The notes beneath the pieces were generated by a model. The model saw nothing but the letters and a program-made list of their open reading frames with translations, did no database searches and was not told where the DNA came from. Both the position numbers and the translations under genes were made by a program. Below, piece after piece: positions 1 to 41,850 of a DNA stretch of 64,000 nt. The stretch lies in assembly GCA_000182565.2 (NCBI GenBank), contig KQ257464.1; one strand, given 5' to 3'. Numbering within the stretch: position 1 is the first letter of the stretch; the number at the start of each line of letters is the position of its first letter. Origin of the DNA: Spizellomyces punctatus DAOM BR117 (Eukaryota).

Positions 1-75
1 ATTCGGTTTGCATTTACAGATGATGTTGCAGATGTGTAATTTTTTTTTTTTTTTTTTTCTTAGAGTAAGAAAACA

Positions 76-624
76 ATGGAAGAGCAAAATCAAAATCATC
101 AAGAATCAAGTGCCATTCCACAAGAGAATGTAGAAACACCCGCTGAACAAGCACCTGTTCAAAAAGCAGAAATTATACCAGAACAGCCTCCAAAGCAAAA
201 GGTGAAGCAACCGATGACAGAAAAACAACGGGCAGCATTGGAGAAGGCGCAAAAAGCACGTGCTGAACAATTGCGTCTAATGCAAGCAAAACGTGAAGAG
301 GAAAGGAAAGAGCAAGAGAAGCAGCGTAAAATCGATGAGGCCAAATGCATCCTTGAAGAGGAGAAGGAACAGAAGTGATTGGCAAGGGAAGAACGACGAA
401 ATGCGAAGCGAGGAAAGAAGGCAACACCAACACCAACACCAACAACAAGTAGGAGCAAGAGAGCCAAACCAGCAGCAAAGGCGCAGCCAGCAGCAATACG
501 CCCATCTAAAAAAAAGAGTGTAATTTTGAAATTCGGTGATGATGAACCATTCTTTGACTCTAGATCACCGTTCTTTGAGGAGGACAATGTTGAGGAGGAC
601 AACTATGGTGGCATTTTCGGCTAA
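76..624 (+). pseudogene. Viral coiled-coil/basic protein with one internal TGA (376-378)
   Basis: ORFs 76..378 and 379..624 share a frame and are separated by a single TGA (probably from CGA). TEKQRAALEKA matches SEKQRAHLEKS in the inner-element ORF at 24475. Confidence 0.65.
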
Positions 625-665
625 AAATCTTCCATTTTTTTTTTCCTGCAACTCAGTAAACAAAC

Positions 666-1919
666 ATGTCAGAAGAAGTTGCAGTACCATGTAACTGGCT
701 GTATAGAACAGGAAGTTTTGCCAAAAGTTACTCAGATCCCCGTGGGGAGGGGGTGTCAATCTATTCTCCGATAGGTCAAAGTACATATACAACAAAGTCA
801 AGAAACCTGACTCTGATTAAGATCACTTGCGACTCAAATTCGGTCTCTTTCATTTTGCAGAAACTAATTCTGTCAATGGATGTTTCTGCATACGATAATG
901 CAGGGAACCTGATAACTCCTGGTACAGGTGTTAAAAACACATATCTTGGCTTGGAATCCATTATTCAATCATTGACCATCAAAGCAGGGGGAGAAACTGT
1001 TGTCAACATACCAAACTATCCTCTTTATCTAGTACAAACGTACCACAATCTATCTGCCGGTAGTAAGAAATTGTTGAGCCAACTTTCCGGACATGGAAAC
1101 ACCAATATCTTTGCAACATCGAGTACCATCTCCATCAACCATCACCCTTTTGTGGGTTTCTTTCATCCAACAAATGACCAGTTCTTCCCTGTTTGGGCAC
1201 TTCCAAATCAAGCACTCGAAATCATAATCACGCTTGCGGATCCTTCAACCATCTTTACATCGGCTGGAGTTGCAGAGATAAGAGTATCGAATATAAGGAC
1301 TTTGATTTCATATGTGACACCACCACCAAGCAGTGTCATTAACTCCACACATGCTATAAGTGATGGAAAGCCAATATTCTATGATTATGTTAGATCAACA
1401 CAGACCGAGAACGCATGTAGTGGTGGAAACCGGAATACATTCTTGCTTCATATGAGTGGTGTAAGGTCACTTCAAGGGATCGAAATGTCATTTGTGGACG
1501 ATGATGTTCTCAATGACCAGACGAAAGATAAGGCGCTAATGTATTCTTCACAAGGGCTTTGCGAGTGGCGAATTCAACTGGGGGCAAATCTTACCATTCC
1601 AAGTGGAATGCAAGGGTTCAGCCATAGCCCATCTGACAATCAGACTTTGCTTGTTTCACAACTCAGTAACAATAACTTTGACCAACTCGGGGAGATGGAT
1701 ATGTCGTTCGCAGATTATGATTCAAAAGCCTTTTCATTTGGATGGAGTTTTGCCAGCAAGGATGAAGGCAGTCAGGCGGCATTGAGTTTTACAGGGACAG
1801 ACAGTTTATTAAGAGTACATATGCAACATGCTGTTGCGCCTACGCAAAAGGTGCGTATGGTAATGTGTTATCATGAAAATGTAACACTTTCAATCGGAGC
1901 AGTGGTAACAGTTGTATGA
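666..1919 (+). CDS. Major capsid protein (double jelly-roll, PLV type), outer element
   Basis: 417-aa beta-rich ORF. ESIIQSLTIKAGGETVVNIPNY parallels DAVWKRQSVLINGRIIEDLNDY of the 462-aa MCP. Viral gene context. Confidence 0.7.
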   Translation: MSEEVAVPCNWLYRTGSFAKSYSDPRGEGVSIYSPIGQSTYTTKSRNLTLIKITCDSNSVSFILQKLILSMDVSAYDNAGNLITPGTGVKNTYLGLESIIQSLTIKAGGETVVNIPNYPLYLVQTYHNLSAGSKKLLSQLSGHGNTNIFATSSTISINHHPFVGFFHPTNDQFFPVWALPNQALEIIITLADPSTIFTSAGVAEIRVSNIRTLISYVTPPPSSVINSTHAISDGKPIFYDYVRSTQTENACSGGNRNTFLLHMSGVRSLQGIEMSFVDDDVLNDQTKDKALMYSSQGLCEWRIQLGANLTIPSGMQGFSHSPSDNQTLLVSQLSNNNFDQLGEMDMSFADYDSKAFSFGWSFASKDEGSQAALSFTGTDSLLRVHMQHAVAPTQKVRMVMCYHENVTLSIGAVVTVV

Positions 1920-2006
1920 TGTAATTCTTTGAATTATTCGATGAACGTACATTTTGTATAAAAGAAAGCTGTTGCTTTTCAAAGAAGAGAAAAAGTGCTT
2001 AGAAAA

Positions 2007-2741
2007 ATGAATCCGCCTGAAATTGTGATTTCAACTGTGGACGGTTTTGATGTATATCCAGAAAGAGGACTTATCATGAACATGAAGAGGGGTGGACTAA
2101 ATAAGACTGGCGAATTCATAGGAGCAAAAAGTCAAGGGTATCTTCATTTTGCATTAAATGGAAAAAACTATCCACTTCACCGATACATCTATGAAACCTA
2201 TCATGGCATAAAACTAAAACCAGATGAGATCATCAACCACATCAATCTCATCACTGATGATAATCAGATTGATAACCTGGAAATCGTCAATCATCAACAA
2301 AATAGCCAGTGGAGAAATAAAAATAAGAATAATTCGAGCAGATTCAAGGGTGTAAGTTGGGATCCGAGTAGGAACAAATGGAAAGCCAGAATAGGATACA
2401 ACACAGAGTTATGGCTTGGATCCTTTAACACAAAGGAGCAAGCGGCTGTGGCTTACAATCGAAAAGCACGTGAATTGAATGAGAAAGAAGGATGCAAGTT
2501 CCTCTTAAACAATGTTGATGAGACAATTGAGATGCCACCAATCCTGCCAGTTAAGGAAACTGTTGGTGTTTCTTGGGATCAAAGCAGGAATAAATGGTCA
2601 GCAAGAATTGGGTATAATAAAAAAGATATTCACTTGGGACGATTTAAAGAGAAAAGAGATGCGCTTCTTGCTTATAATGCGAAGGCACGCGAATTGAATG
2701 AAAAAGAGGGCTGTTCATACAAACTCAATAATGTAGAGTGA
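2007..2741 (+). CDS. HNH endonuclease with two AP2-like DNA-binding domains
   Basis: LHRYI...INHIN...DNQIDNLE...N HNH motif followed by two GVSWDxSRNKWxARI...AYNxKAREL repeats. Confidence 0.85.
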   Translation: MNPPEIVISTVDGFDVYPERGLIMNMKRGGLNKTGEFIGAKSQGYLHFALNGKNYPLHRYIYETYHGIKLKPDEIINHINLITDDNQIDNLEIVNHQQNSQWRNKNKNNSSRFKGVSWDPSRNKWKARIGYNTELWLGSFNTKEQAAVAYNRKARELNEKEGCKFLLNNVDETIEMPPILPVKETVGVSWDQSRNKWSARIGYNKKDIHLGRFKEKRDALLAYNAKARELNEKEGCSYKLNNVE

Positions 2742-2788
2742 GCCTTGTTTCATGTAAAGCTTAATTCTGTTGAAGCGAACAAATATGT

Positions 2789-3088
2789 TCATTCAATTTT
2801 CCCACCAGTCACTTTTTCAACAAAGTCGTCAGCGTTCTTGTGGAGTTCTTGTAACTTTTTCAAACCAGATTCCCCATGACTAGAAATCTTTTGACTTTTC
2901 TCTCGGACTCCTGCTGAGAAAAGCGGTGACTCTTGTACTTGGCGATTTACGTGCTGCACATGTTTATTCAATGTAGTGGCATGCCGGACTGCTTGATTGG
3001 CAAAGTTCCTTGCTTTTGCTACATAGTTAGGCGCATTATTCCACAGAACATTTGCCTTTGCCTTCGCTTTAGAAAACCAATTAGGCAT
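2789..3088 (-). CDS. Small basic amphipathic viral protein (homolog of 22807..23124)
   Basis: 99-aa ORF with an N-terminal amphipathic helix (WFSKAKAKANVLW). The central segment aligns with the 105-aa ORF of the inner element. Confidence 0.55.
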   Translation of the reverse strand: MPNWFSKAKAKANVLWNNAPNYVAKARNFANQAVRHATTLNKHVQHVNRQVQESPLFSAGVREKSQKISSHGESGLKKLQELHKNADDFVEKVTGGKIE

Positions 3089-3152
3089 CTTGATTTATAG
3101 AACAGAAGAGATATTATTTTTTCAGCTCTACATAGCAAAGGAAAAAACTAGT

Positions 3153-4619
3153 ATGGCATATTACCGAGCCAATTACTTGAGTGATACATATGCTATTTCA
3201 CCACCGATTCCAAATCTGCAAAAACGTCAAGTGGGTGTCACACTAGACTATTCAAAGGTTGATATCCTCGGACGACCACAAGTTGTCTATTTGTGGAACT
3301 GCAATGTCCATGAGAAAGACCTAGCAACAAGGACGAACTATGCAGCACCGAAATATGAACCGAGGCTCTCATCTTCTGATGTTCTGAAATTATCGGCTGC
3401 CCAACGAACTACAAAGGCTTACAAGGACAGTCTTGAATATGTTAAAGCAGAGGAAGATTACAGGAAGAAACAGAAGTATCTTGATTCTATTACACCAAGT
3501 CGTTGAGGGAATGCTCTAACTGTTGGAACACAAAATTCCCTTTCAGGATTACCAATTCCTGATGAATCTGGGCATGTGTTTTCCTATCCCACATCAGTGA
3601 CTTCCCAAATGGGCTTAATGTTTGAAGCACCACCTAATGGAAATGAGATTCCAGCACAGTCATGTAATGTAAATTCTACTCCCCTAGAACCTGTAATTCT
3701 AACAAGGGAGATGGAAATTAGACGAGATGCAGTTGGAAATGACCATGTCAATCATGGGACTGGCGCTGCTGTTCCATTGGATGCGATGACAATGGCCGAT
3801 GCTTATATTCCACTGATTCCAGGCAGTTTCCCTGGCTTGACTCCAGAGGTTCATGTGGAATCTCCTCAAATCGATGCCTCCATGGAAACAATGCCTCGTA
3901 GCACCGCACCAATTCCACATGATACAGTACTCCTGAATGACCGCCATGATCCGTCTGGTGTAGCAGATGTTTTAGAGAGAAACTCCATCAATGAAAAATT
4001 TGTCCCGGTACCTGTGAGAACACCATTTCACTTCAAAGGTAAGGAAGCAACCATATTAGCAGGTTCCAAAAGGAAAGCAAATGCACCCCCGCCAATTCCT
4101 CGATTGAATAAAAAGAAGCAAAAAACAGGAGGAGCAGAGCATGATGTTGTAGATGCGATAACTCCACCAGCAACCCCATCACCTGTTGTGATTTTTGCTG
4201 GAGTTGCTCCTCATGGAACTAAAAGAAGACAGTACAAACAACCAGATGATAAGCAGACCACGGTAAAAAGACAAAGAATAGATTCTTCTATACCCGAACG
4301 AGAGGAAGTAGAGGAAATTAGATTAACATCCCCTGAAGAAGTTGAAAAACATATACGAGCCAAAAATAGGAGAAAAGTCAATTTTGCACCAGCACCTCCG
4401 AATGTTGCTGTCAATCCTCCAATGTTAGTTCCACTAACCGCAGACTTGGGAAGCGAAGTATGTCCTCTCACTCATCTAAGAGGACAACGTGAAGTGGAAT
4501 ATGTTGTCCCTGCACAAACACAATCGACACTGCATGTGGAACCTACGGTTCGAAGTAGAAGAAGAAAAGGTGCAGAGGATGTCACACTTCCACCGAGGAA
4601 GAAACAGAGGATAGCATAA
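3153..4619 (+). pseudogene. Viral hypothetical protein, Pro-rich with NLS-like basic tracts, one internal TGA (3504-3506)
   Basis: ORFs 3090..3506 and 3576..4619 are in one frame with no other stop between them. Confidence 0.55.
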
Positions 4620-4716
4620 GGTTTTATTGCCCCATCTTATCGATAAGATGGGCACCGTTGAGTGCTTCGTCTTTTGCCAAGCTCCTCAAATTTTACTTCC
4701 TAGCTACAATATAACC

Positions 4717-7700
4717 ATGAGTGGAATAAACACTAGGAATGCATCTGGGTTGCGCACCATTGATAGTACAAACCTAGTTCAACCATATGTGACAGGAGAG
4801 ATGACTGGATTTGATGAAGGATCAAAGATAAAGAATTTTTCCGTTGGGGAATTCAAAAAGGTATCAAATGAAAATGGTGAACTCAAAGTCAACGAGGTTG
4901 TAACCACCTCTGAATGCTTATCTTCCAATAACGAAAACAGTGTTGTAAGTATCGAATTACTTTACGACAACGAGAGACTTGAGGTTGATGAGGCGAGTCA
5001 TTTAACCACAATTGACATATCTGCGCATCAACCTCTTGTCTACTCGAAAGAGGATCATGATATCCAACTTCAGTTTGATGATTCATCTTTATCTGTAGAA
5101 GAAGAAAAACTGAAAGTGATTCCCGAAAATTATGAGTTCCCAATGTACCGTGATGGTGAATCACGGACGGTTGGTATTCGAGTGGATGAGTCATTATCCA
5201 TTACTGAAAATGGCCTATCCGTAAACTTTCCACCACCTCCGCCTTTAGAAACACTCAAGAAACCATTGTATCGGGATAATGGCCTTGGAATCAAACTCCA
5301 CAAAAGTCTAAAGGTGAACAATGAAGACGAATTGGAAACTAATACTAGTCAACTGTTCAAGGCCTTTGGGGCAATAAAGACCTCTTCAGGGGCCGACTCC
5401 ATTCTTGATATCGGAAGCAGTTGGCTCGATTTCAGCTTCTCATCTCTAACTGAACTAACAGACGTCTTAGGGGAGGTAGATACGACTGCCATTCGACTCA
5501 TGACCGACACTACTATTTTTAGTCAAGCTGGTTCCAAGTTATCTTTGAAGAGTCCAGGATACAAGCAGATACTGTATGGTAACATGACTTATGGATACAG
5601 TGGGAGTCCTTCATTCACCTACTCTAGTACACTTTCGGAGTTGCAAGTACCGAATGTCAAATTAACTGGGGTATTTCCTGCTATTGGAGGAGGCTCGTAT
5701 GCAGTATCAAAAGATTACATGGCCAGTTATTACACAGGCTCTCAAACTGGGGCTGTCTCGGTGGGACCAGAGTTCAGTGGAAGACGCGAAATCGGTGTGC
5801 TCGTTGACAATCAAACAGTTCGGATTGTAGGAAACCAGTTGACAGGTGGCTACATTTTTCAAGACTTTAATGGAGTGACCATTTGCCCAGGGACTACAAA
5901 TGATATTCAACTTTCCCTTAAGTGTGAGGCTGGCAGTTTTCTTCAAATGGTCAAAGCAGATACCATTAAAGACATACTGACTTGCAGCAATGGTATCGAG
6001 AGAGTACAGAATGACCTTCAATTGAGTCTGAAAACCCAAGGCGCTTTGCAGATGGTCAGGAAAGATACGATAAAGGAAGTATTAATGGCTAGCGAAGGCC
6101 TTGTTTGTGTTGGCAATAACATCCAGTTGAGTTTGATAGCCGAGGAACCCGACCTGACAATAGCCGGAGGAGTTATCACCTGCAACATTACATCGGGTAT
6201 AGGCTTGAAGAAAGTTGCTAACATCCTCTCCACTGACCTCAAGGGCATCAATGGAGTGCAAGTTTCGGGAGATTTGATTTCATGTTCTCTTACAGGAAGC
6301 AATACAGTTCTTCGAGTGGGGGATACTCTGAAAGGCAATTACATCGGCTCGACCAATTCATATGGAAGTGTGGTCGTTGTTGGTAATACCATTCAGTATA
6401 ACATGATTCCGCCACAATTCATAAGTAACAGTCCAAACCTTATAATAACAGGTTCGTACCCACTCTACAACTTTACACTCATTGACCCTACGCCACTATT
6501 GAAACAAAGGGATACCAATAATACTGAACAGACTGATACCACAGAAGTGTTAAAAACGGATGTTCCATCAGGCAACACGGTTATTTTGTCCGGAGCAACT
6601 CCATTATCAACCGTACCTTTTCCAGCGATGGTCTCCCCACCCTTGACAGTCCCTATGGCTGTAAACTCCATCCTCCCAATCGTCTCAACGTTCCCTTGGG
6701 GAATGATTTTCGGAGGGTCATGCAAACATAAGGTTCAACAAGATGCGGAAGGCCAACCTATACTCGATGGTGATGGAAACCCTGTTTACGAACCAATAGA
6801 CCCTGTTACCTTCATGCCACCACTTGAAACCAGGAGCAATGTCGCAATTGCTTCGGACCCGATTGGAGGCTGCACTCGATTACTATTTGATGTACTGAGT
6901 TGCTATTGCACCATCAAATACAAATACCCGCAGCAAGCAATCAATCTCTCAATGTTAAGAGATTACGACACCAAAGTTATCAAACCTTGGGTAGGAAGCC
7001 AGATAATGGCTTTAACTTCGAATAATATTACTTTTGGAAGCAATATCTCGGGTAAAGTAATTACAGGAAGCAGAGTTCAAATGACCGCCTCATCAGCAGG
7101 ACAATCATCTGTCTTTATTTCGAACAGTTTTGATTCAACAAAAAGCACCTGGTTCAGGCTCAATGGAACAGGATTCTTAGGATACAACCCCGGGGCTTCA
7201 ACATGGCTTGGTGCTCAGGATTTACCAATGTTCATATATCCTAGGACATCTAGTATGCCTACTCTAGGTCTAAGAGTGGACACAAATGGTTCGTGTGTTG
7301 TAGGGGGTGACCTTACTATCGGATCATCTTCTGTGAGCAGTCTACATTCACTGGTTGTAACCAACCTTTCTTTAGGAACCAATGCATGCAGCATTCTTTA
7401 TCTTACGGCCTCAGGAGGTTCTGGAGTGATGTTTTTGAATGGTGCCTCGCGAACAGTGGATGGAGGAGCCTCGACAATGACATTAAGGAATGATGCAGGC
7501 AGTCTTAGGCTTCAAGCCCAGTCTGCTAAAGGATTAACAATACAGGCAAACACAGGAATCGTTACATTGGATAGCACAACAGTATCAACATCTTCAACAA
7601 CGGGTGCCTTAGTTTGTCCTGGTGGTGTTGGTATTGCAAAGGACATATTCGTTGGTGGTAATATCTACGCCTCCACCAATATGAAAGTAGCAACGGAAAC

Positions 7701-10015
7701 ATTCGTTACAACAGGATTAGCATCGAAGCAAAACTTATCTCCTTTGCTCGACAATATCAGTAGTCTGACCCCGATTGATGGCACTTTTTTGATGGGTGGA
7801 AATGGTGGTTTTTTCTGGATTGTACCTAAAGATGAAATCCTCAGCGCATATCAGCCCCTGATTACACCTGCGAGTTTGCTTAACCTGAGCGGTTTAACGG
7901 TACAAAATTCAAACACCAATGCTTCAGCAATCACACTAGGAAACACTAGTGCTGCACGGACATGGAATATCCATGTGGCTGGTTCATCGAATGGAAACCT
8001 AATTTCTGGAGCATTAGGCTTTTACTCGTCATACCAAGATAAAGGATACGTATTCCGAATTGACCCATCAGGTAATACGGTCGTGAGTGGAGGCCTAGGA
8101 GTATCAACTGATGCATATATCGGTGGAATGGCTTACATCGGAGGTCTCGAAGTTGCATCTCAAAAATTTGTAATTGATAACACTGCTCCAATAAGTCAAT
8201 CCTTGTCTTCATTGACAATGATGGTAACTAATAACAACAATTCCCCCACTACTGCACTCGCATCGAAGCAGCCTATGAACACTACAACTAATAGCCTGTA
8301 CACAATGACGGTGCAGCCAGACAGTTGGCTTTATTCTTCTGCTGGGACTACGTTCGAGAATGTTACTTCCAGTCAAGTGAAAGGCATCCTTGATATTGCT
8401 ACAAATGCTAGCATGAACACACTTCTTTCTGGGAAACAACCCAGTATCACAACATCAACAAATCTGAGTCTTGCTTCTGTTACTGCAAATGGTTATTTGA
8501 GTGTTCAAAATGGCACCAATCCCACCTTTATGTCACTGGTAAATACTTCATCAAACGTGACTTGGGGTATTCGATTTGCAGGTTCAACAGCCGATGGCTC
8601 TAACCCAGCAGGCGGGTTTGGAATCAACTCTTCATATAACAACATTGGCTATGTGTTCAAGATTTCTAATACCGGTATTACACAGATAACAAATACCTCA
8701 CAATCGACTAGTTCGACTACAGGAGCACTTCTAGTAAGTGGTGGTTTAGGTGTTGCCAAGGACTTGTATGCTGGAGGAAATGTAATTGGTAGCACCTCTG
8801 TGGATGCTCCAAACTGGGTGCAATCTAGAAACATTTCATCTGGCATAAACACATACGCTGCTATTGGTTGTTCCAATGATAGCGGAAATGCAGCCTTACT
8901 TTTTCTCAACTCTTCTACAAGGACTGCTGATGGCTCGTCGAATAACGCTACTCTTCATAACAATTGTGGAGACATGAACATCCAAGGGAAATCTGGTCTA
9001 GGATTAGGTCTGCGGATTGTTTCTATTTCGAACGAAGTTAAGGTGTTGACTGCTACAGACTCCTCGTCTGCAACAACAGGGGCTTTACAGGTATTAGGAG
9101 GTGTAGGAATATCGAAGACTCTGTGGGTTGGTAATAAGGTAACAAGTGGGAAAGGAACAGGGTATGGTTTTGGATGGGGTAGCATAGGTGGAAATGTCAA
9201 TACTGGTGACATGACATTCTTCTCCCCATCTTCGAATGGCCAAGCCTTCTTCAATGATCAGATTAACAATGTCTGTCTGCGGGCATGGAATATGAACCTG
9301 AGATTCGGTGTAACAAATAGTTCATCTCAACTAGATATTCTCTCATCTGGGAATGTCATTGTAAATACAAGCACGGATGCTTCATCATCAATCACAGGTG
9401 CATTCCAAGTAAAGGGAGGTGTTGGAATATTGAAGAATCTCTACTGTGGAGGGAGTCTGTACTCCAATAATCTGAAAGTTGCAACCGAGAGTTACGTAGG
9501 GACAGCCATTGCTTCAAAACAGACATCGAGTCCGCTCCTAGATTCTATCAGTGGACTTGCAATATCAGCGAATTCATTTATTGTTGGAAGTTCTGCTACA
9601 GGGTTCTCCACAAAAACCATTGAAGAGGTGAAGTCAATTCTAGGCATTACGAATGTCGACCTCTCAGGGAAGCAAAATGCCTCTCCTTTACTCTCTACTC
9701 TCACTGCGATGAGTCCAATGTCTAACATGTTTCTTATGGGGGATGATGTAACGGGATTTTCCCTTGTGAATGATATTTCCGTTCGAAGTATTTTAAACAT
9801 TGTTGACTATGGACCCAGCATATCAGCACTGCAAACATCGAAACAAGATTTACTCACACCTACCAGCAATCTGTTGGTAAATACAATTCTTGCTAATGAT
9901 ACATCCGAGGCAACAACCATATCAAGTGGGGCTCTACAGGTTAAAGGAGGAATAGGGGTTTCTAAAAGTATCTTCTCAGGTGGAAACATTACTGGAAAAG
10001 TTCTTATAGCCTCCT
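4717..10015 (+). pseudogene. Giant fibre/spike-like protein of the outer element, 5' part (interrupted by the LTR element)
   Basis: Beta-spiral-like shaft repeats followed by repeated SSTTGALxVxGGxGIxKxLxxGG modules. Highly similar to 25334-31808. The frame breaks exactly at the LTR start. Confidence 0.8.
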
Positions 10016-10615
10016 TGTAACGACGAGGACGTCTTCGAGAGATCGCGAGTAAGCCCAAATCGGACGCGGGAAGCACGAATCGCGTGACCAACTCCACCGA
10101 TTGAGTTACCGCGACCGAAAAAACTGGTTCGGAGAATGGCAATTGGCGCATTAGATTTCAGCGTGCCTCGTACAACCTGTGGAGGCCCGAGCCAGTGCGG
10201 AAAAGGAAGAGATCGGTACCGCCACCAATAAATCAGTTGCGGTGCAGCGACACCCATTAGTTTAGTTTAGTTTAACAGTTTATCCAAGAATCTTGTATAA
10301 AAAGGATGTATTCAATAAAATAAGTTGGGGGCAGAAGCCGTAGTGACACAAAATCCCCATAACTCGCTTCTCAACTCCAATCTTAGGTTAACAGGAACCT
10401 AACAGAGCGCTTCAACGGCCTGATCACCCGTACCGAAGCCTCTAAATCCTGCTCGGTTCACAACTAACCGACTCTCCTTGCCTCTCGCCCCCAAGTCGCT
10501 ACCGACGCCCAAAGAAAGGATTCGGAGACTATGATTCCTAGTACGGCCACCCACATAACCTGCTAGGAGACCCAAGTCATCTTTACCGTAGTCTACCAAC
10601 AAAAAATCCGCTACA
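10016..10615 (+). repeat. 5' LTR of Gypsy-B
   Basis: TGTAAC...GCTACA; direct repeat of 33498-34097 with about 10 differences; contains TATAAAAA and AATAAA. Confidence 0.95.
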
Positions 10616-31300: not shown

Positions 31301-31808
31301 TTCCACAGGAGCATTGGTCATTTCAGGAGGTGTCGCGGTTGCTGCACATGTTGTTGCAGGAGGGAATCTGTATTCGAACGGTGCTGTCTATAGCAATGGT
31401 CAGGTTTGTGCTACTCAACCATGGGTTGCCAGTCAAACATTTCTAAGAAATGTTCAAGTTATCAAACTTTTGACTAAAGACGTGTGGCAATCCAACAATG
31501 CCTCGAAGGTCTTCTATGTTTCGACACCTGGCAAGGTACTTATGGAGTGGACGCTCAACCTCCATGGCACAGCAAACTCAAATGGTACATTGTCAATATT
31601 TCTTGGCCAAAGTGCTGGGTCGATGCCTCTTGTGTACTCGAGCGACTTTAACTTTAATTCGGGAGTCAATCGTACAATCACAGCAGCCTTTGTTGTTACA
31701 GGGATGTCCGATAACGTTGCTTACTTCACAAATTTTAGTATCAGTCAGGCTGCTCCCGATAACACAACTGATGTTACCCTCATTAAAATCACTGAACTCG
31801 GACAATAG
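25334..31808 (+). pseudogene. Giant fibre/spike-like protein of the inner element, frameshifted by a 17-bp deletion near 27410
   Basis: Compared with the outer copy (GATGGAAACCCTGTTTACGAACCAATAGAC), this copy reads GATGGAAATAGAC. Restoring the deleted bases joins ORFs 25334..27454 and 27375..31808. Confidence 0.85.
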
Positions 31809-31863
31809 ATTACGCGCGCTCTACCGTTATTAAAAAAAATTGAGCAAGATAAGAATGCGACGC

Positions 31864-32318
31864 NNNNNNNNNNNNNNNNNNNNNNNNNNNNNNNNNNNNN
31901 NNNNNNNNNNNNNNNNNNNNNNNNNNNNNNNNNNNNNNNNNNNNNNNNNNNNNNNNNNNNNNNNNNNNNNNNNNNNNNNNNNNNNNNNNNNNNNNNNNNN
32001 NNNNNNNNNNNNNNNNNNNNNNNNNNNNNNNNNNNNNNNNNNNNNNNNNNNNNNNNNNNNNNNNNNNNNNNNNNNNNNNNNNNNNNNNNNNNNNNNNNNN
32101 NNNNNNNNNNNNNNNNNNNNNNNNNNNNNNNNNNNNNNNNNNNNNNNNNNNNNNNNNNNNNNNNNNNNNNNNNNNNNNNNNNNNNNNNNNNNNNNNNNNN
32201 NNNNNNNNNNNNNNNNNNNNNNNNNNNNNNNNNNNNNNNNNNNNNNNNNNNNNNNNNNNNNNNNNNNNNNNNNNNNNNNNNNNNNNNNNNNNNNNNNNNN
32301 NNNNNNNNNNNNNNNNNN
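31864..32318. other. Assembly gap (455 N)
   Basis: Run of N. Confidence 1.
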
Positions 32319-32320
32319 AT

Positions 32321-32560
32321 ACAAACCATAATGGCTTCATAAATTATTCGTCTATAGCATTTTTCAGAAATCGAAAGCATCTTATCACCATAAACCTGAA
32401 AACCCTAATGCCTGTCATCAAGGATCCTACGCTAGATAAAAGGGCGATCTGCAAATGCATATTGCAGCATCAGGAAACTCTATTGGACATGGATGACCAC
32501 ATTATGAATGTGGGGAAAGAATATGCTCAGTTGAAGAATATTGCTTCTAAAGGTACTTAA
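32321..32560 (+). CDS. 3' part of a viral hypothetical ORF that starts in the gap
   Basis: Open frame from the gap edge (TNHNGFINYSSIAFF...NIASKGT*). Confidence 0.4.
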   Translation, partial: TNHNGFINYSSIAFFRNRKHLITINLKTLMPVIKDPTLDKRAICKCILQHQETLLDMDDHIMNVGKEYAQLKNIASKGT

Positions 32561-32598
32561 AACGCACGCTGAATAATCTTCCACTCATGATAATAAAA

Positions 32599-32967
32599 AT
32601 GCGCATTTCGATGCGTTGCGATACTTGTACAGGCTTTAGAGAATATCAACTCTGCATATGTCTGAAATGCGCTGTGTATTCCTGCTATGAATGTTTGGAT
32701 AAACTAAAAAACTATTCGCATGGTCGAAATCATGCTATCGTTCATCATGATTGTCAACAGTACATATCTACCGCTTTCGCCGCTCGCCGTGCCGGCATCC
32801 CTGCCGGGATTGGACGCTCCGCGCCCGGCATGCATGAAGAAAGAAAACGAAAGCCCAGGGCTACATGTAAAAAAGTAGCATCAAAAGCGGCGGAAGATGC
32901 CAGGCGCGGAGCGGCCAATCCCGGCTGGTATGCCTTGAAGGTAATGTTGAGATGGGATGAGTTCTGA
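32599..32967 (+). CDS. Cys-rich zinc-finger-like viral protein running into the right TIR
   Basis: CDTC...CICLKC...CYEC...HHDC. Confidence 0.5.
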   Translation: MRISMRCDTCTGFREYQLCICLKCAVYSCYECLDKLKNYSHGRNHAIVHHDCQQYISTAFAARRAGIPAGIGRSAPGMHEERKRKPRATCKKVASKAAEDARRGAANPGWYALKVMLRWDEF

Positions 32968-33212
32968 CGCCTGAGTTGCCTACATGAAATATGCAACCAG
33001 TTTTTCAGCAGGAAACCAACGAGGCCATTTAAACAGATGCATATTTCTATTTAGTTCTATCTTTTTCATCAATTGAACCAAATTTATACAGCTTTTTCCC
33101 AAAAATCATGGAGTGTATTTTGTGTCCCCCCTCTTTTCTCATAAAAATGCTATGTAGGGAGAACATGTAGCAAGAGCTTCCGTTCTTCGCCGTTCTGTGA
33201 CCACTTGCAGCA
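32918..33212 (-). repeat. Right terminal inverted repeat of the inner element
   Basis: Ends ...CCACTTGCAGCA, followed by TSD CACGCG. Confidence 0.95.
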
Positions 33213-33487
33213 CACGCGGAGTACCATTTCCGCGCGACAAACCTGAAAAGGGCCACGGAGACCTTTACGGCCCTCTACATAACCAGAACTGGCCCCGACG
33301 TGACCCCGGGTACCATCGTTCATACCGCAACAGATCAAATCTGGTTTTGTTGCAACGTCGGTGGCCGTGCCAGTATCATCTGGGTCGTGAACCAAGATGC
33401 AGATGAAGCGGACCCCACAGATCCGGTACCGACCTGGTAATTGACGTCCCAACACCCCCGCTCGGAGCGCCGGTGCGTTGGCTCTTC

Positions 33488-33497
33488 AAAGGGGGGA
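33488..33497 (+). promoter_or_regulatory. Polypurine tract of Gypsy-B
   Basis: AAAGGGGGGA immediately before the 3' LTR. Confidence 0.85.
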
Positions 33498-34097
33498 TGT
33501 AACGATGAGGACATCTTCGAGAGATCGCGAGTAAGCCCAAATCGGACGCGGGAAGCACGAATCGCGTGACCAACTCCACCAATTGAGTTACCGCGACCGA
33601 AAAAACCGGTTCGGAGAATGGCAATTGGCGCATTAGATTTCAGCGTGCCTCGTACAACCTGTGGAGGCCCGAGCCAGTGCGGAAAAGGAAGAGATCGGTA
33701 CTGCCACCAATAAATCAGTTGCGGTGCAGCAACACCCATTAGTTTAGTTTAGTTTAACAGTTTATCCAAGAATCTTGTATAAAAAGGATGTATTCAATAA
33801 AATAAGTCGGGGGCAGAAGCCGTAGCGACACAAAATCCCCATAACTCGCTTCTCAACTCCAATCTTAGGTTAACAGGAACCTAACAGAGCGCTTCAACGG
33901 CCTGATCACCTGTACCGAAGCCTCTAAATCCTGCTCGGTTCACAACTAACCGACTCTCCTTGCCTCTCGCCCCCAAGTCGCTACCGACGCCCAAAGAAAG
34001 GATTCGGAGACTATGATTCCTAGTACGGCCACCCACATAACCTGCTAGGAGACCCAAGTCGTCTTTACCGTAGTCTACCAACAAAAAATCCGCTACA
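33498..34097 (+). repeat. 3' LTR of Gypsy-B
   Basis: 600-bp direct repeat of 10016-10615. Confidence 0.95.
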
Positions 34098-34101
34098 TCC
34101 T

Positions 34102-35115
34102 CCACGGGCGGTTATTTCAAGTTGAGAAGCGACACTCCCTCTACGAAAGGTGACTACACTATCTCCTACAACAACTCCGGAGACACCCTTCATGTCCACC
34201 TCGCCGGCTCATCTGATAGTGTAGACCAATGTCATTATGAATTCGGTCATTATTCCAGTGATATCTTTGGAACATGGAATAGCCGATTCTCTGTCAACAC
34301 ATACAATGGAGACCTCATCTCGTCCAGTAATCTAACTATTGGTTCGCCACTTAATGGGTTATGGGCTATTATTCTTAAAAATCTCGACCCAGGGACCAAC
34401 GCTTGCTCTATTCAGTACTTCCAGAATGCTATTGGTTCTGCTGTTATGTTTCTAAATGGAAACAATAGGAGCGTTGATGGAGGCGCATCGACATTTACGG
34501 TGAGGAATGATGCAGGTTCAGTGCAACTGCAAGCGCAGGGAGCAAAGGGTTATCGCATCGTTGACAGGAAATGTCATTGTTGAAATCACCACTCCAGCTT
34601 TATCGAGTACAACTGGTGCATTGGTGGTGTATGGAGGTGTTGCTGTTGGAGCCCATGTAGTGGCAGGAGGGAATCTTTATAGCAATGGCCCAGTTTACTC
34701 GAATGGTCAGGTTTGTGCTACTCAACCATGGGTTGCCAGTCAAACATTTCTTAGAAATGTTCAAGTTTTCAAACTTTTGACTAAAGACATGTGGCAATCC
34801 AACAATGCCTCGAAGGTCTTCTATGTTTCAACACCTGGCAAGGTACTTATGGAGTGGATGCTCAACCTCCATGGCACAGCAAACTCAAATGGTACATTGT
34901 CAATATTTCTCGGCCAAAGCGCTGGGTCGATGCCTCTCGTGTACTCGAGCGACTTTAACTTTAATTCGGGGGTCAATCGTACAATCACTGCAGCCTTCAT
35001 TGTTACAGGGATGGCCAATAACGTTGCCTACTTCACAAATTTTAGTATCAGTCAGGCTGCTCCTGATACCACCACAGATGTTACCCTTATTAAAATCACT
35101 GAACTCGGACAATAG
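34102..35115 (+). pseudogene. Outer fibre gene, 3' part (frameshift near 34550)
   Basis: Removing the LTR element gives KVLIASSTGGYFKLRSD, matching KVLIAASTGGYFKLRSD of the inner fibre. Same C-terminus ...KITELGQ*. Confidence 0.9.
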
Positions 35116-35168
35116 ATTACACGCACTATTGCTATTATTAAAAATTGAGGAAGCTATACAAAGATAGA

Positions 35169-35483
35169 ATGCAATGTGTGGACGTTCTAGGTCATTCAGT
35201 CTTCAATATCAAAGACGCCGTGAAGGGTGACATCGATAACTTCTGGAGATATTGTCAAGGTATGCTGACAGGAGATAAAAAATGTATCATATTGTATCTT
35301 CCGAAAACAGACCAGAACGAACACATCTTCAAAGATATTATGTCAATCATTCACTTGAAGAAACTGGATGAAATCTGTTTTCGAAATTCTGGCTACTTGG
35401 CCATTCTGCAGGATTGTGTTCTCTTAGGACACAATCATAATGAAAGGCTCTTTGTTCTAGAAATGCAGATGGAAAGTGCATGA
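35169..35483 (+). CDS. Viral hypothetical protein (104 aa)
   Basis: Intronless ORF directly after the fibre gene. Confidence 0.4.
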   Translation: MQCVDVLGHSVFNIKDAVKGDIDNFWRYCQGMLTGDKKCIILYLPKTDQNEHIFKDIMSIIHLKKLDEICFRNSGYLAILQDCVLLGHNHNERLFVLEMQMESA

Positions 35484-36521
35484 ACATGGCTTCCCTTTTT
35501 TTTCTCTATAAAAGATGGGGATGCAGATGGAGAACTGTATCCCCATTGGGTCATACAGTCCTTTCCTTTTCATGGCTTCTTTCATTGGACTGACCACAAA
35601 AAGAAACAAAAAAGAAACCACATGCATCTGAAACACAGATGCCAACACAGCTTTTCGACGATGAGGAGTAACGAATCCCTCAAGCCCACCTAGCCAGTTT
35701 AACCCATTTTTTATAAGCTTTTTCATTTTCGATTTCAATTTACTTTTCTCAAAAAGTTTTTTCATTTTGATATTACACATATATCCTAAAAAAAGTGGAT
35801 AGATTGGCTAGGATACATAAGGAGAGAGAAAACACTTACATCTATGAAAATGTTTAATTCTAAACCACCTACATGAATGTAGACAAGAGAAGTCTAGCAG
35901 ATGAGAAAATAGGATAAACTAGGACACGAGAGGATGGCAGCTAATAAGACTTGGTCCATGCAGGATGGCAGTTTTGCACCTACATACCCATTGTTCACAT
36001 TTAGGAAAAAGGCACATTCAAACAGATAAGAGTAACCAGGCTTTTTCCTTATGAAACCACTGTTGTCAAAAAAATAGGCCTAGCTTGTCCTATTTTTTTG
36101 TCTGCTAGACTCCTTTTGTCTACATTCATGTAGGGAGTAAAGAAACACATTTATATATATATGGAAGAAAAAAACACTCCATATATATTCTAGCCACTCT
36201 AACCACTAATTTAGGGGTAATGTGTAATATCAAATGAAAAAAACATTTTGAAAAAAGTAAAATTGAAATTGAAAATGAAGAAGCTTGTAAAAACAGTGTT
36301 AAAATGGCTAGGTGGGCTTGAGGGAAGATGGCATCCCACTTTGTCAATGAGAGATTGAACATGTTATATTGATAGGATGAGAGAACATCTATTGAACCAT
36401 TTTATCGATAAGATGGGAGAGTTCCTTTTCCATTTATAAAAGAGGGTCGCCAGTCTCCCCCCAGTCCCTCCCCAGCTCGAAGCCTTCTTTTCAAAAATGA
36501 TTCCATATACAACAATTAACA

Positions 36522-36725
36522 ATGGACTATGCAAATGATTGTGTGCTGGTGCCGAGATGGATATTGGAATGGTTGCTTTCAGGGAACAATGGACACCAAA
36601 GTCTAGAGCAAATCTGCATGGATTGTGGAAGGAGGTTTCAATTGCGAAGAATTGGACAGAAAGGATACAAGTTTCGATGCTATCCTTGTTGGAAGAGATA
36701 TGTGGAGAGACGAGTCCACAGATGA
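36522..36725 (+). CDS. Small CxxC...CxxC zinc-ribbon-like protein
   Basis: 67 aa, CMDC...CYPC, with an A-rich leader. Confidence 0.4.
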   Translation: MDYANDCVLVPRWILEWLLSGNNGHQSLEQICMDCGRRFQLRRIGQKGYKFRCYPCWKRYVERRVHR

Positions 36726-36931
36726 GTCCACAAGCTATGATGTCGAAGGCTGAGAGATGGAGTCCCAAGATGAAGTGATATCATGGAGTCTTGAGAAGAA
36801 GCAAATGTCAAGTTAGAACCAGTGTTGACTTTGAATTAGGTGGAGTTTGGACACGTGAAATATTAGATGCATAAAATTTTATGTGTAAGTGCACTATACT
36901 GCATATCATCCCTTCATCAATAGTCCCGGAC

Positions 36932-37043
36932 TTGGACAAACACCTTGGATGACTCGAAACACTTTGAAACACTCCAATGCATTGGGCAAACACCTTGGAA
37001 GACTCAAAACACTTTGAAACACTCCAATGCATTGGCAAAACAC
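36932..37043. repeat. 50-bp tandem repeat (about 2.2 copies)
   Basis: TTGGACAAACACCTTGGATGACTCGAAACACTTTGAAACACTCCAATGCA-like units at 36932 and 36982, partial at 37032. Confidence 0.9.
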
Positions 37044-37048
37044 TTCTG

Positions 37049-37278
37049 TACTATGGGTTTTGCAACATACCTCCGTACTATGGGTTTTGCAACATACCTC
37101 CATACTATGGGTTTTGCAACATACCTCCATACTATGGGTTTTGCAACATACCTCCATACTATGGGTTTTGCAACATACCTCTGTACTATGGGTTTTGCGA
37201 CATACCTCCGTACTATGGGTTTTGCAACATACCTCTGTACTATGGGTTTTGCGACATACCTCCATACTATGGGTTTTG
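37049..37278. repeat. 27-bp tandem repeat (8.5 copies)
   Basis: TACTATGGGTTTTGC(A/G)ACATACCTC(CG/CA/TG); variants occur only at CpG positions. Confidence 0.95.
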
Positions 37279-37303
37279 GTACAGCGATGTTGACTATGGG
37301 CAC

Positions 37304-37351
37304 TGTGGTAGTGCATGCCTGTGGTATATACCACAGGCATGCACTACCACA
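37304..37351. repeat. Perfect 48-bp palindrome at the inferred right terminus of the outer element
   Basis: TGTGGTAGTGCATGCCTGTGGTAT|ATACCACAGGCATGCACTACCACA. Confidence 0.95.
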
Positions 37352-40300
37352 TCATTGGCTAGGATGATGAGAGGTTTCCTGTATGCAATGACTCGGAAAT
37401 AGGTGCAGAAAGTCGGGTATTCTCCTCTGTGGCCTCTGAGGGAAGTTTCGAGGCATACTGTCTTGGTAGATGAGATACATCCACCAATGCCATTGAAAGC
37501 CATCATTTCCGCATCCTGCAAATTGGTTTCAGAGAACAGAAGGCCCTGGTACATGTCGGAAACCAGAGACTTGCAGGCTCCTGTGTCTAGTACCACAGGT
37601 GCCCAGAGCTGAGCGATGATGCCTAGCGTCCAGCAAGGCTGTGTTTGGGTCTTGGTCTCGCTTTTGAGTACATTGCCTAAATCTACTGAGTAGAAGGCAT
37701 TGATGGAAGGCACCGCGACCTCGAAATGGGGCACGATGTCGTTAATTGTTGCTTCCATAGCCTTGATCACACTCTCAAAGTGCTCTCTAGATTTGTCATT
37801 TTGTGGTTTTGTTGTTTTATTCTGGCGAGCAACTTGTTCAATAGCCAGCATGACTATATGCATCCGTTCGCTCTCTTTGTGTCTTTGGAGATGTGGATGG
37901 TCTTTAATGTGCAGAAATTTGGGGTTTCCGCAATGATAATAATAGTCTGAGTGAACGATATTGCCTGTCAGGAGAAATGCCACCAGTTGCAGGTTGGCAT
38001 AAGAATCAAAGATAACAGGATCTTCAGAGCTCCACATCAAGAATTTCTCATGCTCATCAAGCCTTATCCAGGCAAGGAGGATCAAACGAGGGGTACCATC
38101 TTCTCGGACCTTTCGCAGGATTTGATCCTTGTCAGCTTCAGCTGTGGCAGTGATGTAGAGGTGGTGGGAACTCCATGCGACTGTGTAGGGGTTGTTCCCG
38201 AGGTGCCCGGTGCCTTGCTTTGGTTCTTTGGCGAAGAAGCTGAGTGTGCGGGGGTTGTTGCCCATCATCAGAGCCACTTGCGGGGTGCCCCAGATGATGG
38301 CTATGTTGTCCCAGACTCGGTCCCAGCCCTGCGTGGGTGTGCAGGGGTCCTCTTCCTTAGTCTCCATGACCTCAGAAAGAGGTGCAGTCATCAAAATTGT
38401 TGATTCCGAGTGCTTGGGTGAATGAAAGAATCCAATGGTGTGGAATCCTTGATTAGCGGCGGCTGTCCTTTCCAGTTCCGAAGCTGAAAAAAGAGTCTTG
38501 GTGGTAGTGGATGTCAAGTCCAGCTCCACTATGTAAGACTTCTTGGACTCCTGTTTGGGTTTCCAACCTGCGGGCATGGGTGCTCCATATGGTCCTTTCT
38601 TTCCATCTTCAGGATCTTTTCGGTTCGGGTTCTGCCAGCAGAAAACATTCCAATGCCTTTTCTGACAGAATTTGCAGGGTGCCGGGGGTTCCTTGTTGGG
38701 GTCCGGAACCATCTTCTGAGGACCATTGCGACCCTTTTTGGGGTTTCCGGTTTTATGTTGAGCCATCTGCTTAGGGCCTCTGTCAGTTCTGGTCTTTTGT
38801 GACTTCTTCTGAGCTTCTGCAGCACCGCTGTAGCAGGGGTCTCATCTTCTGGTGTCATCAGAGCCGAAATAAAGGCGCAGGAAGTCTTTTAATTTGGTCA
38901 GGTTCATGACGTTACAGGATTTGACCATGATTTGGATGTCGCTGGGCAATTGTTCAACTATTAGGTCGAAATGCTGGTCAGCGGGACATTCTATGTTTGC
39001 CCGGTCGCCATAAGTGAGGCGCCGGAGATGAGTTTTGTGGTCGATGAATGCAAGAAAGCTGCGAAATTCTTTGGGGTTTGCATGACAGCGCACATATTCA
39101 GCTTTGCGCTTGGACTTGGTTAGGGGGTCTCAGAACTCTTGAAGCAGTTCTTCCTTCCACCTTTTCCAGGTCCACGAGCGAGTTTCCTGGGCTTCCAGAG
39201 TGTAAAACCAGGCATTGGCAGGGGTTTTCTCAGCTATCATGGCTGGTAGGAGCTGTACCATCCTGGCATCTGATGTTGCGCTAACATTTTGAAGAAGTTG
39301 GACTTTGTTAAGCCATTCTTCAACGTCTTGGTTTCTTTTGCCCATAAACTCAGGCACGTCCTTTGCTTTCAAGGAATTGACCTTGGTGTCACTGGCCCAC
39401 GGGGCCACTGGCACTTGGATTGGAGGCACTGCACCTGAAAAACTTGGTTTGGTATGCTCCCTGGGTGTGTCCGACATTTCCCACAGGGTTGTGGACCATT
39501 CTCTTGTAGCTCATGCTATGAGAGGTTGTTCAGGCAGCAGGTGATGTGCTAGGGCTTCTAAGGCTCGTGCAAGGCACTCATCTGCCGCTGTCTGACATTT
39601 GGAAAGCCTATGAAGCTGTTCCATAAGATTTTGAGTTGCCAACTGCATTGCAGCAGTCGAGCGGGCAATGTCTTCTTTTAATGCTGCCACTTCAGAGGCC
39701 ATCATGGCCAAGTTAGGGGCTTCTGGTTTGACGGAAGTGGTCCCTGAATGCCTTGGGCATGTTGCGGGAGGGACTTTGACGTCCTCTGCAGGACCCTGAC
39801 TATGAGTCTGGATCACAGGTGAGCGGCCTCACGTTGGTGAGTGTTTGACTGGCATCATTCTCAGTTTCATGAAGTTCTGTCTCCGAAACAAGAGAAAAAG
39901 TTTCCAAGTAGCTACCTGAGCAGATCTCAGTTTGCGCAAGAGTTTCAGTACAACCGAATAAGGTTTTCAGCTGAATTTGAGAGGGGAAGGTGGTTCATCA
40001 TGCTTCTCCACCATGTAATGGATTTTTTGTAGGTAGACTATGGTAAAGACAACTTGGGTCTCCTAGCAGGTTATGTGGGTGTCCATACTAGGAATCGTAG
40101 TCTCCGAATCCTTTCTTTGGGCATTGGTAGCGAATTGGGGGCGAGAGGCAAGGAGAGTCAGTTAGTTGTGAACCGAGCAGGATTTAGAGGCTTCAGTGCA
40201 GGTGATCAGGCTGTTGAAGCGCTCTGTTAGGTTCCTGGTAACCTAAGATTGGAGTTGAGAAGCTAGTTGTGGGGATTTAGTGTTGCTACGGCTTCTGCCT

Positions 40301-40585
40301 GCTGACTTATTTTATTGAATTTGTCTTTTTATACAAGAATATGCTACGGTAATGTCTACACTAGTTTCTGTAGCCTTCATTAGGGTGGCGGCATCCGATC
40401 TTCCCATCTCGGACCATTGCCATGATCGATCATGGCTGCATAATGTATCCTTCATGCTGCGCTGGTGTAGCCCAGAACCGAGCTTGATCTTAGGGGTTTC
40501 AAAGCTTAGGTTACAATTGCGGAAACCTCAATCATGGTCACCTGATGCCTTTGAGCGAACCGGTTTATCAGAGTCATTTGCTACA
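37352..40585 (-). mobile_element. Older degenerate Gypsy copy (Gypsy-A): 5' LTR, PBS and gag-protease, cut off at 37352
   Basis: 37352-~40340 is the reverse complement of ~10290-13277 with many CpG transitions and stops. PBS TGGTGGAGAAGC runs downward from 40013; gag ATG at 39858. Confidence 0.9.
40014..40585 (-). repeat. 5' LTR of Gypsy-A (about 572 bp; distal part differs from Gypsy-B)
   Basis: 40014-~40340 matches the Gypsy-B LTR from the TATA box on. The minus strand starts TGTAGC at 40585, exactly where Fanzor coding sequence begins. Confidence 0.65.
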
Positions 40586-41778
40586 CAATGTCCTTCTTGC
40601 CTGCTTACTGTCAGTTGTCAAGACTATATGAAAAGCATGGATTTCGATGGTTCAGCGCCATCCCACTTCGCCGCTCCCTCATCCAAAGCCATATCCGCAT
40701 CGACATGGTCATCCTGTACCAGCATATTCTTTGCATCATGCGACAAGAAGCAGAAACTGTTGAAAAGGTCGATTTATGGTTGCACATCTGTAATCTGCAG
40801 AACAAGGCTTTTAGATCTCATCGTGGAATGTGTTTTGAAGGCTCGATCATGATGGATGGTACCTCGGTGTCAGTTTACTTGAAACATCCTGAAGCTGACA
40901 AGTATGGAAAGTGCGGCGGTGGGAAAAAGTCGGCAAAGACCTTAGAAGCTGAGGTGAAGGCAGTATATGTGGAGAACAACTTGCCTGCTTGTCGAGCAGC
41001 AGAGAACTTTGTCATTATCGACACAAACAAGCATGATCTTCTCTACTGCCAAGACAGCAATGGTATGACATTCCACTACACCACCAACCAGTGAGCCGTG
41101 GAGACAGGTAGCTGGCGATTTGCAAAGAGACGAGAAGCAATGAAAGCCGGCAGCATTGATCTCATAGAATCACATATCCCAAGCCACAAGATGATGAATC
41201 TCATGGACTTTACTCGCTACCTTCTCATTCGCTGCGCTGATTGGGATTGTCGCAAGGAGTTCTACTCCCACCCTGCCCACATGCAATGGAAGTGGCATGC
41301 ATTTATAAACTGTCAGAAGAACGAATCAGACCTCATAAGTGCCATGCACAACAAATACAGTGAAAACTTTACTGTTGTGATGGGTGATTGGAGCGACGCT
41401 GGTCAAACTGTGAGATTTCAGACCTCATCAAAGACAAAAGGTTGGTGCACCCTCTTTAAGCAGAACAGGATCAACTGCTTCCTTCTCGACAAGTACAAGA
41501 CCTCATCTGTCTGCCCTCACTGTTCCTCTGACATTGAAAAAGGCTTCAAAACATGACCTCATTCAAAACCTTGGCACCGTCACGAAGGCAAGATTGAAAA
41601 AGTCCACAGATTGCTGGGTTGTACCAACCCTAACTGTTTGCAGCAAGCCTGGACAATGCGCTACTGGAATCGAGATATGCTGAGCACCTGCAATATGCTA
41701 ATGATTGTGAGATCAATGTTGGATGGACACGGTAGACCAGAGGTGTTCAGCAGGAGGAGTGTTCCAGCGGTAGCGTAG
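40586..41778 (+). pseudogene. Fanzor1: Fanzor1 (TnpB-family RNA-guided RuvC nuclease), C-terminal ~400 codons, inactivated
   Basis: RuvC-I VIID(T)NK, GDWS, RuvC-II LLD(K)YKTSSVCPHC, CTNPNC zinc finger, RuvC-III WNRD...CN...RPEVF. One frame with TGA stops at 41092 and 41554. Confidence 0.9.
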
Positions 41779-41850
41779 CGTAGATTAGTTAGATTAAGGT
41801 TTCCGAACCGGTTGTCGCGCGGTTCAATCCCTGGTGTGGAGGCACTGACA
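41779..41850 (+). ncRNA. Fanzor omegaRNA scaffold remnant
   Basis: GGTTTCCGAACCGGTTGTCGCGCGGTTCAATCCCTGGTG directly after the stop codon, with stem GAACCG/CGGTTC. Resembles the SpuFz omegaRNA 5' half as recalled; the 3' half appears absent. Confidence 0.6.

Follow-up and report, generated by a model that had tools for sequence, protein, structure and literature searches.

The first ~42 kb of the window analysed here, a 64-kb stretch of a Spizellomyces punctatus DAOM BR117 contig, are occupied by a nest of mobile elements. It is highly probable that the whole stack is real at the coordinates of Table 1 and that it runs, from outside to inside, from the remnant of a Fanzor-encoding transposon (layer 1) through a Gypsy long terminal repeat (LTR) retrotransposon (Gypsy-A; layer 2), a Polinton-like virus (PLV; the outer PLV; layer 3) and a younger Gypsy copy (Gypsy-B; layer 4) to a second PLV (the inner PLV; layer 5). 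Layers 4 and 5 were demonstrated directly, by target-site duplications, restored reading frames, a reference copy of the interrupted fibre-like gene and reads from empty sites. Layers 1–3, the left halves of which lie upstream of the window, are probable, with good support from exact junctions. As a structure the locus is of an ordinary kind, a transposon pile-up, in an unusual host.

Base composition follows the same layout. GC content was ~0.42 in the virus blocks (1-10000, 18000-33000 and 34000-37400), 0.52-0.56 at 10000-18000 in Gypsy-B and ~0.50 at 38000-40000; these steps coincide with the element borders, and self-comparison of the window gave the same borders.

Direct evidence for the two inner layers

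The inner PLV opens at 18028 with TGCTGC, closes at 33212 with GCAGCA and is bounded by terminal inverted repeats (TIRs; 18028-18322 and 32918-33212) with 2 mismatches in 295 nt, which a repeat search returned as an inverted repeat of 299 nt and 99% (18024-18322/32918-33216). The element interrupts the integrase frame of Gypsy-B, in the integrase-chromodomain region, and contains an assembly gap of 455 N at 31864-32318. A preliminary description of this DNA had held that removal of 18028-33212, flanked by CACGCG, restores the Gypsy open reading frame (ORF) to a TAA at 33440. This was borne out: in-silico removal of 18028-33218 left one uninterrupted frame, 890 codons long, that begins at 15577 and closes with the TAA at 33438-33440. 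Moreover, the empty site was found in other Gypsy copies, where the letters before 33213 are those of window 17992-18021 (126 reads of run X9, and contigs of runs X2 and X3), so that the sequence there is that of an uninterrupted Gypsy with one CACGCG.

Gypsy-B in turn splits the fibre-like gene of the outer PLV. Its two LTRs were recovered in the repeat search as a direct repeat of 601 nt and 98.3% (10016-10616/33498-34098). Removal of 10016-34097, flanked by TCCT, had likewise been claimed to restore the fibre frame, and the rejoined frame indeed reads VLIASSTGGYFKL across the junction. In the self-comparison, outer positions 10010 and 34096 both aligned to inner position 30784; thus the fibre-like gene of the inner PLV, which is free of insertions, serves as a reference for the state before insertion.

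Pfam searches of Gypsy-B identified RVT_1, RT_RNaseH, Integrase_H2C2, rve, an SH3 domain and Chromo. Judged from its sequence, Gypsy-B is a Ty3/Gypsy chromovirus: it has the TG..CA LTRs, the 4-bp duplication, the order of reverse transcriptase (RT), RNase H and integrase and the C-terminal chromodomain of chromoviruses in general, and nothing about it is unusual apart from two in-frame TGA codons (13771 and 15511). The first of these sits between protease and RT, and programmed read-through may be possible there.

Junctions and CpG decay in the outer layers

Only the right end of the outer PLV lies within the window. It is closed by a perfect 48-nt palindrome (37304-37351; fold z-score of -9.03, with 0 of 200 shuffles as good), and tandem repeats occupy 36932-37278 (27-bp unit, x8.6; 50-bp unit, x2.2). 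Neither the terminal palindrome nor the subterminal repeats are present in the TIR of the inner PLV. The last letters of the virus are ...CCACA up to 37351, followed by TCATTG. The earlier placement of this end, at 37351 within the protease region of Gypsy-A, held for the end itself, where the palindrome was found; one correction is needed, in that Gypsy-A can be matched to Gypsy-B as far as 37349 and the ACA at 37349-37351 is common to the virus end and hence ambiguous. The palindrome argues for assigning these three letters to the outer PLV. A contig of another Gypsy copy runs on past 37349 with sequence like Gypsy-B 13281-13310; therefore, the break is specific to the Gypsy-A copy.

Gypsy-A was recognized as an inverted match of 2991 nt between 10291-13280 and 40338-37349 (~92.5% identity). 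Over 2989 aligned nt the two copies are 92.6% identical; of the 222 mismatches, 194 are transitions and 159 lie in CpG context. It has five in-frame stops, and its gag-protease part, as seen in translation, is cut ~75 codons past the DTGA protease motif. The last letters of its LTR, ...CTACA up to 40585, are followed by CAATG, and Fanzor homology starts there, in agreement with the proposal that this LTR edge falls inside a Fanzor ORF. The U3-side portions of the LTRs (10016-10290 versus 40339-40585) are barely alignable and may represent two LTR variants of one family.

Beyond that edge, the frame 40588-41775 matched S. punctatus Fanzor 1 (PDB 8gkh) in phmmer with E 1.3e-216 (query 1-396, chain 634-1032), which upholds the initial Fanzor label. 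The match to the 638-aa Fanzor begins at residue ~240. In tblastn, four intact Fanzors produced one match each, starting at residues 227-235 beside 40585, and the N-terminal part (239 residues) was found nowhere in the window. The CAATG at 40586 fits Pro239-Met240 of SPPG_07727, a codon context that suits a CAAT duplication. Seven proteins of S. punctatus DAOM BR117 share 75-83% identity with the remnant, with 58 matches at E<=1e-10, and the longer length class of its relatives comprises three Fimicolochytrium proteins only; the host is accordingly S. punctatus or a near relative. Multi-copy read depth drops after ~41836, which gives the approximate right end of the remnant. Pfam-A assigned no family to the Fanzor pieces or to P0001, nor to the intact SPPG_07727, though precomputed tables list PF26935 for this protein family; a tRNA scan of tRNA-like letters after the Fanzor stop returned 0 genes.

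By homology to SpuFz1, this layer can be classed as a dead copy of Fanzor1/SPu-1 that retains the C-terminal half with the TnpB-like RuvC and zinc-finger regions. Over residues ~240-638 it shares ~80% protein identity with SPu-1/SpuFz1 (PDB 8gkh), zinc-finger and RuvC-like motifs included. Unlike SpuFz1, however, the remnant is dead: the N-terminal 239 residues are split off, two in-frame TGA codons are present (41092 and 41554, read as X) and, in the alignment to 8gkh, the Glu of the LLDEYKTSS motif is Lys. By analogy with TnpB, this Glu is presumably a catalytic residue. All four in-frame stops of Gypsy-B and Fanzor are TGA, which fits CGA-to-TGA or TGG-to-TGA transitions in methylated DNA. 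In run X8, from chromatin immunoprecipitation sequencing, depth was ~280 over 41418-41751 (the 3′ part of Fanzor) versus 1-50 in adjoining bins, which could reflect copy number or enrichment.

The order of decay put forward earlier was also upheld: TIR mismatches are 2/295 and LTR mismatches 10/600, Gypsy-A and Fanzor carry the stops given above, and the CpG gradient agrees. The observed/expected ratio (o/e) of CpG was 0.99-1.08 in Gypsy-B, 0.83 in the inner PLV and 0.95 in host DNA, while it was 0.46-0.58 in the outer PLV, 0.48 in Gypsy-A and 0.59 in Fanzor; the three outer layers have thus lost much of their CpG and the two inner ones little. All 10 LTR mismatches of Gypsy-B and both TIR mismatches of the inner PLV are CpG transitions. 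The number of CpG sites lost was 123 in Gypsy-A versus 10 in Gypsy-B and, between the fibre copies, 82 in the outer versus 50 in the inner. This gradient matches the nesting order and supports it. In Spizellomyces, 5-methylcytosine is reported to be confined to transposons (PMC12695648). The layers would have been CpG-methylated after insertion and would then have decayed by C-to-T deamination, which would account for the stops in Fanzor, Gypsy-A and Gypsy-B as well as for the graded loss of CpG.

The preliminary description had treated the inner two layers as shown and the outer ones as inferred; this division stands, the 48-nt palindrome, the Fanzor codon context and the CpG gradient being new support for the outer part. 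Several points weigh against that part. Layers 1–3 have neither a second end nor a duplication within the window. The letters 37349-37351 fit Gypsy-A as well as the outer PLV end. Alignment to Gypsy-B is poor in the outer ~270 nt of the Gypsy-A LTR (22% mismatch, many gaps), so that the edge at 40585 is set solely by the CA end and the start of Fanzor. The CpG asymmetry of the fibre copies is mild, and the viruses may have arrived with differing CpG contents. Among the records listed none bridges 37351 or 40585 (38-51-nt reads and fragmentary contigs, with runs X1 and X11 left aside for their small shares), which is neutral evidence, and depth in the bin 37076-37409 is low (~1-7). Finally, all the elements are multi-copy, a join inside Gypsy-A being possible, though the even divergence of that element is mild evidence against one, and the inner PLV contains the 455-N gap.

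These points could be accommodated if only the three inner layers were truly nested, with the junction at 37351 and/or 40585 arising from deletion, from ectopic recombination between repeat copies or from integration beside an already truncated element, so that the missing halves would not lie upstream. Room for such a history is left by the position of the outer left halves beyond the window, where the other copies of any duplications of layers 1–3 would lie as well, and the inverted Gypsy-A and Gypsy-B copies (~92.5% identity) would be a substrate for rearrangement. We nevertheless consider it unlikely: both outer junctions fall at canonical element ends (the palindrome end with CA at 37351, and the LTR CA at 40585 where the Fanzor frame picks up again), it would be rare for a deletion to halt twice at the exact last base of an element, and Gypsy-A has diverged from Gypsy-B evenly over its whole extent (4-9% per 300 nt), which speaks against rearrangement.

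An assembly chimera, in which the Gypsy-A parts beside the virus and beside Fanzor come from different loci, is very improbable. The elements are multi-copy (depth up to 50-380 versus 5-35 in unique virus parts), the scaffold has the 455-N gap, and in nine X9 reads (side 22 nt) the end of the Gypsy LTR at 34097 is linked to Fanzor 40821, a hint of other Gypsy-in-Fanzor insertions that could confuse an assembler. Yet exact duplications flank the inner insertions, removal of which restores two reading frames, the CpG decay of Gypsy-A is uniform and heavy over its whole length, and reads at 97% likeness cover 30/30 bins in both X8 and X9.

In the preferred five-layer order, the locus would be a pile of mobile elements in heterochromatin that grew by five integrations in succession, every new one into the element before it. 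First, an SPu-1 transposon with its Fanzor1 gene would have landed beside host genes; Gypsy-A would then have entered Fanzor codon ~239/240 in antisense, with a predicted 4-bp duplication of CAAT; and a PLV would have integrated via its CA-3′ end into the protease region of Gypsy-A. For these three steps the sequence of events is inferred. The last two are the ones demonstrated above: the younger Gypsy-B of the same family entered the fibre gene of the outer PLV, duplicating TCCT, and a second, different PLV used its rve integrase to enter the integrase-chromodomain region of Gypsy-B, duplicating CACGCG. Such nesting was likely favoured by the chromodomain on the Gypsy integrase, a domain that directs chromoviruses to silent chromatin.

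Two divergent PLVs with a common fibre-like gene

The initial label of 'virus' for layers 3 and 5 was confirmed and can be narrowed to PLV. The inner element is assigned to the PLVs because it combines a homologue of double jelly-roll capsid proteins, an A32-type ATPase, an rve integrase, TIRs and a 6-bp duplication, a set that identifies it as such by gene content. It looks young, given the near-identity of its TIRs and the open frames of integrase, capsid, ATPase and most other genes. Its 22036-22779 frame had a sub-threshold DUF5901 match only (E 0.0027) and may encode the penton (minor capsid) protein, which its size and its place beside the ATPase would fit. In the part of the outer PLV within the window no A32-type ATPase was detected. 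The HNH-AP2 gene of this virus is free-standing, directly follows the capsid gene and is without counterpart in the inner PLV. Neither PLV yielded a chitinase, polymerase, helicase or protease in Pfam searches of ORFs >=150 aa and of smaller ORFs; likewise, the protein-primed family B DNA polymerase and the adenain-type protease, traits of Polinton/Maverick elements in the strict sense, had no Pfam match in any ORF scanned. PLV genes could be hidden in the 455-N gap and in the stretch of the outer PLV beyond the window.

The outer capsid protein had 54 relatives at E<=0.001, and a scan of IMG/VR for it found no relative. Its AlphaFold2 model (mean predicted local distance difference test score (pLDDT) of 87.2) matched PBCV-1 Vp54 in Foldseek with E 7.6e-18 (TM 0.61-0.66) and capsid proteins of BFVD with E 3.6e-24. 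The relatives of the 462-aa inner protein are from Spizellomycetales only, and a fold model built from 8 sequences was unusable (pLDDT 31.6); it is counted as a double jelly-roll capsid protein because of profile homology to the outer family only (hhalign probability 99.9%, E 2.6e-35, 375 columns), at 14% identity. BLASTP between the left-hand genes of the two PLVs (the capsid, 99/105-aa and 336/325-aa pairs) found nothing significant, and among PDB sequences there were 0 matches to either capsid profile or to the 1477-aa fibre protein.

The fibre-like gene, by contrast with the remainder of the two viruses, is common to both. Outer 5095-10010 is collinear with inner 25727-30784 (74-87% nucleotide identity), and outer 34096-35156 with inner 30784-31851 (84%); the shared gene thus extends over ~6.4 kb, and elsewhere between the two PLVs nucleotide similarity was undetectable. 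In the outer PLV the 3′ part reaches ~35115, with a frame break and a stop at 34581. In the inner PLV the gene is frameshifted near 27400 relative to the outer copy, which stays one continuous frame there; the overlap of the two inner ORFs (27375-27454) could stem from a frameshift or from faulty sequencing of the youngest element. Pfam Av_adeno_fibre, with a cut-off of 22.7 bits, scored 24.3 and 22.6 bits in the outer PLV and 14.2 bits in the inner. As this match is single and marginal, the gene is called fibre-like and homology to the adenovirus fibre is not claimed. A search of the ESM Atlas with the 706-aa fibre part led to unnamed viral clusters (best score 0.85), a lead only.

The fibre module looks as if it had been exchanged between divergent viruses, the capsids of which are 14% identical. 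A tentative interpretation, which we hold to be possible rather than probable, is that these are two deeply divergent fungal PLVs with a recently exchanged host-attachment cassette (the fibre), that the inner PLV may be a still or recently active double-stranded DNA virus of chytrids without a replication gene of its own and dependent on host or helper, and that the palindrome and 27-bp repeats of the outer PLV would mark a real genome end.

Table 1. Elements, genes and duplications of the nest, from the outermost layer inwards (coordinates in the window).
Feature	Coordinates	Strand	Basis or remark
SPu-1/Fanzor1 remnant, residues ~240-638 of SpuFz1-type protein	40586-41836	+	frame 40588-41778; right end approximate
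Gypsy-A, 5′ part of older copy of Gypsy-B family	37352-40585	-	inverted match to Gypsy-B 10291-13280
Gypsy-A 5′ LTR	~40014-40585	-	CA end, start of Fanzor homology
Outer PLV, left segment	1-10015	+	GC 0.42, CpG o/e 0.58; extends beyond window start
Outer PLV major capsid protein (double jelly-roll), 417 aa	666-1919	+	structure model and Foldseek
Outer PLV HNH-AP2 endonuclease gene	2007-2741	+	Pfam HNH_3 1.9e-9, AP2 2.3e-13; PHROG 99 (HNH endonuclease) 1.7e-52
Outer PLV fibre-like gene, 5′ part	4648-10015	+	1790-codon ORF entering Gypsy-B LTR
Outer PLV, right segment	34098-37351	+	self-comparison, repeats, palindrome
Gypsy-B, chromodomain Ty3/Gypsy LTR retrotransposon	10016-34097	+	TG..CA ends, LTRs, Pfam
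Gypsy-B LTRs	10016-10615, 33498-34097	+	10 mismatches in 600 nt
Gypsy-B coding frame	10690-18027 and 33219-33440	+	frame rejoined without inner PLV
TCCT target-site duplication of Gypsy-B	10012-10015 (left), 34098-34101 (right)		direct reading
Inner PLV, 15,185 bp	18028-33212	+	TIRs, duplication, self-comparison, empty-site reads
CACGCG target-site duplication of inner PLV	18022-18027 (left), 33213-33218 (right)		direct reading
Inner PLV rve integrase, 376 aa	18347-19477	-	Pfam rve 3.5e-8, 34.1 bits (cut-off 32.6)
Inner PLV capsid protein homologue, 462 aa	19747-21135	-	hhalign against outer capsid family
Inner PLV A32-type packaging ATPase	21316-21987	-	Pfam Pox_A32 2.7e-7, 30.8 bits (cut-off 22.8)
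Inner PLV fibre-like gene	25334-31808	+	two overlapping ORFs, 25334-27454 and 27375-31808

Relation to known elements

From S. punctatus one integrated PLV has been described, together with an 'S. punctatus group' of PLVs (Bellas & Sommaruga 2021, PMC7805220). That element and the ones described here are alike in host species, double jelly-roll capsid gene, A32-type ATPase, rve integrase, TIRs and a short duplication. It is linked, however, to SPPG_00926 and SPPG_00927, which are not proteins of this window, and probably represents another locus; furthermore, it was the one element reported from this fungus, whereas here two different PLVs, with capsids 14% identical, share one locus. In a 2026 preprint, the ATPases of chytrid PLVs were placed in two positions (10.64898/2026.06.19.733378).

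Nested retrotransposons are known from Ngaro in virophage-like elements of Cafeteria, Copia in a PLV of Guillardia theta and RT elements in cryptophyte PLVs (PMC12220804). As in those cases, a PLV gene (that of the fibre in this locus) is broken up by an LTR element of higher GC content, with jumps of composition at the borders. Unlike them, the present locus also has a PLV inside a retrotransposon, a stack five deep and a fungal host. For SPu-1, to which layer 1 is related, the published description gives a length of ~2.1 kb, TIRs of 33 bp and a duplicated TA (Bao & Jurka 2013, PMC3627910). While retrotransposons nested in PLVs or virophages are already known, the more unusual feature is the fibre gene common to PLVs with 14%-identical capsids. 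No description of this nest or of the common fibre gene was found in a literature search of incomplete coverage.

The locus opens no new kind of system and settles no open question. It places five integrations in an early-diverging fungus on a relative time scale, with CpG decay as a built-in clock, and records integration both ways, of PLVs into retrotransposons and of retrotransposons into PLVs. The single element so far reported from S. punctatus is joined by two further PLVs, and their mosaicism, a common fibre gene combined with unrelated capsid modules, bears on the exchange of host-recognition genes among fungal viruses.

From ~42.1 kb on, the window carries host genes (KCH potassium channel, DUF2855, BTG, ferric reductase, TRAPPC9, ankyrin and RasGEF). 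Some short X9 reads (sides of 22-25 nt) join the Gypsy LTR end at 34097 to 40821, 37975 and 32552, in Fanzor, Gypsy and PLV sequence, a weak hint of further nests of the same families elsewhere in the genome, and one contig joint, from 32985 to 37716, is a hint of the same slight weight.

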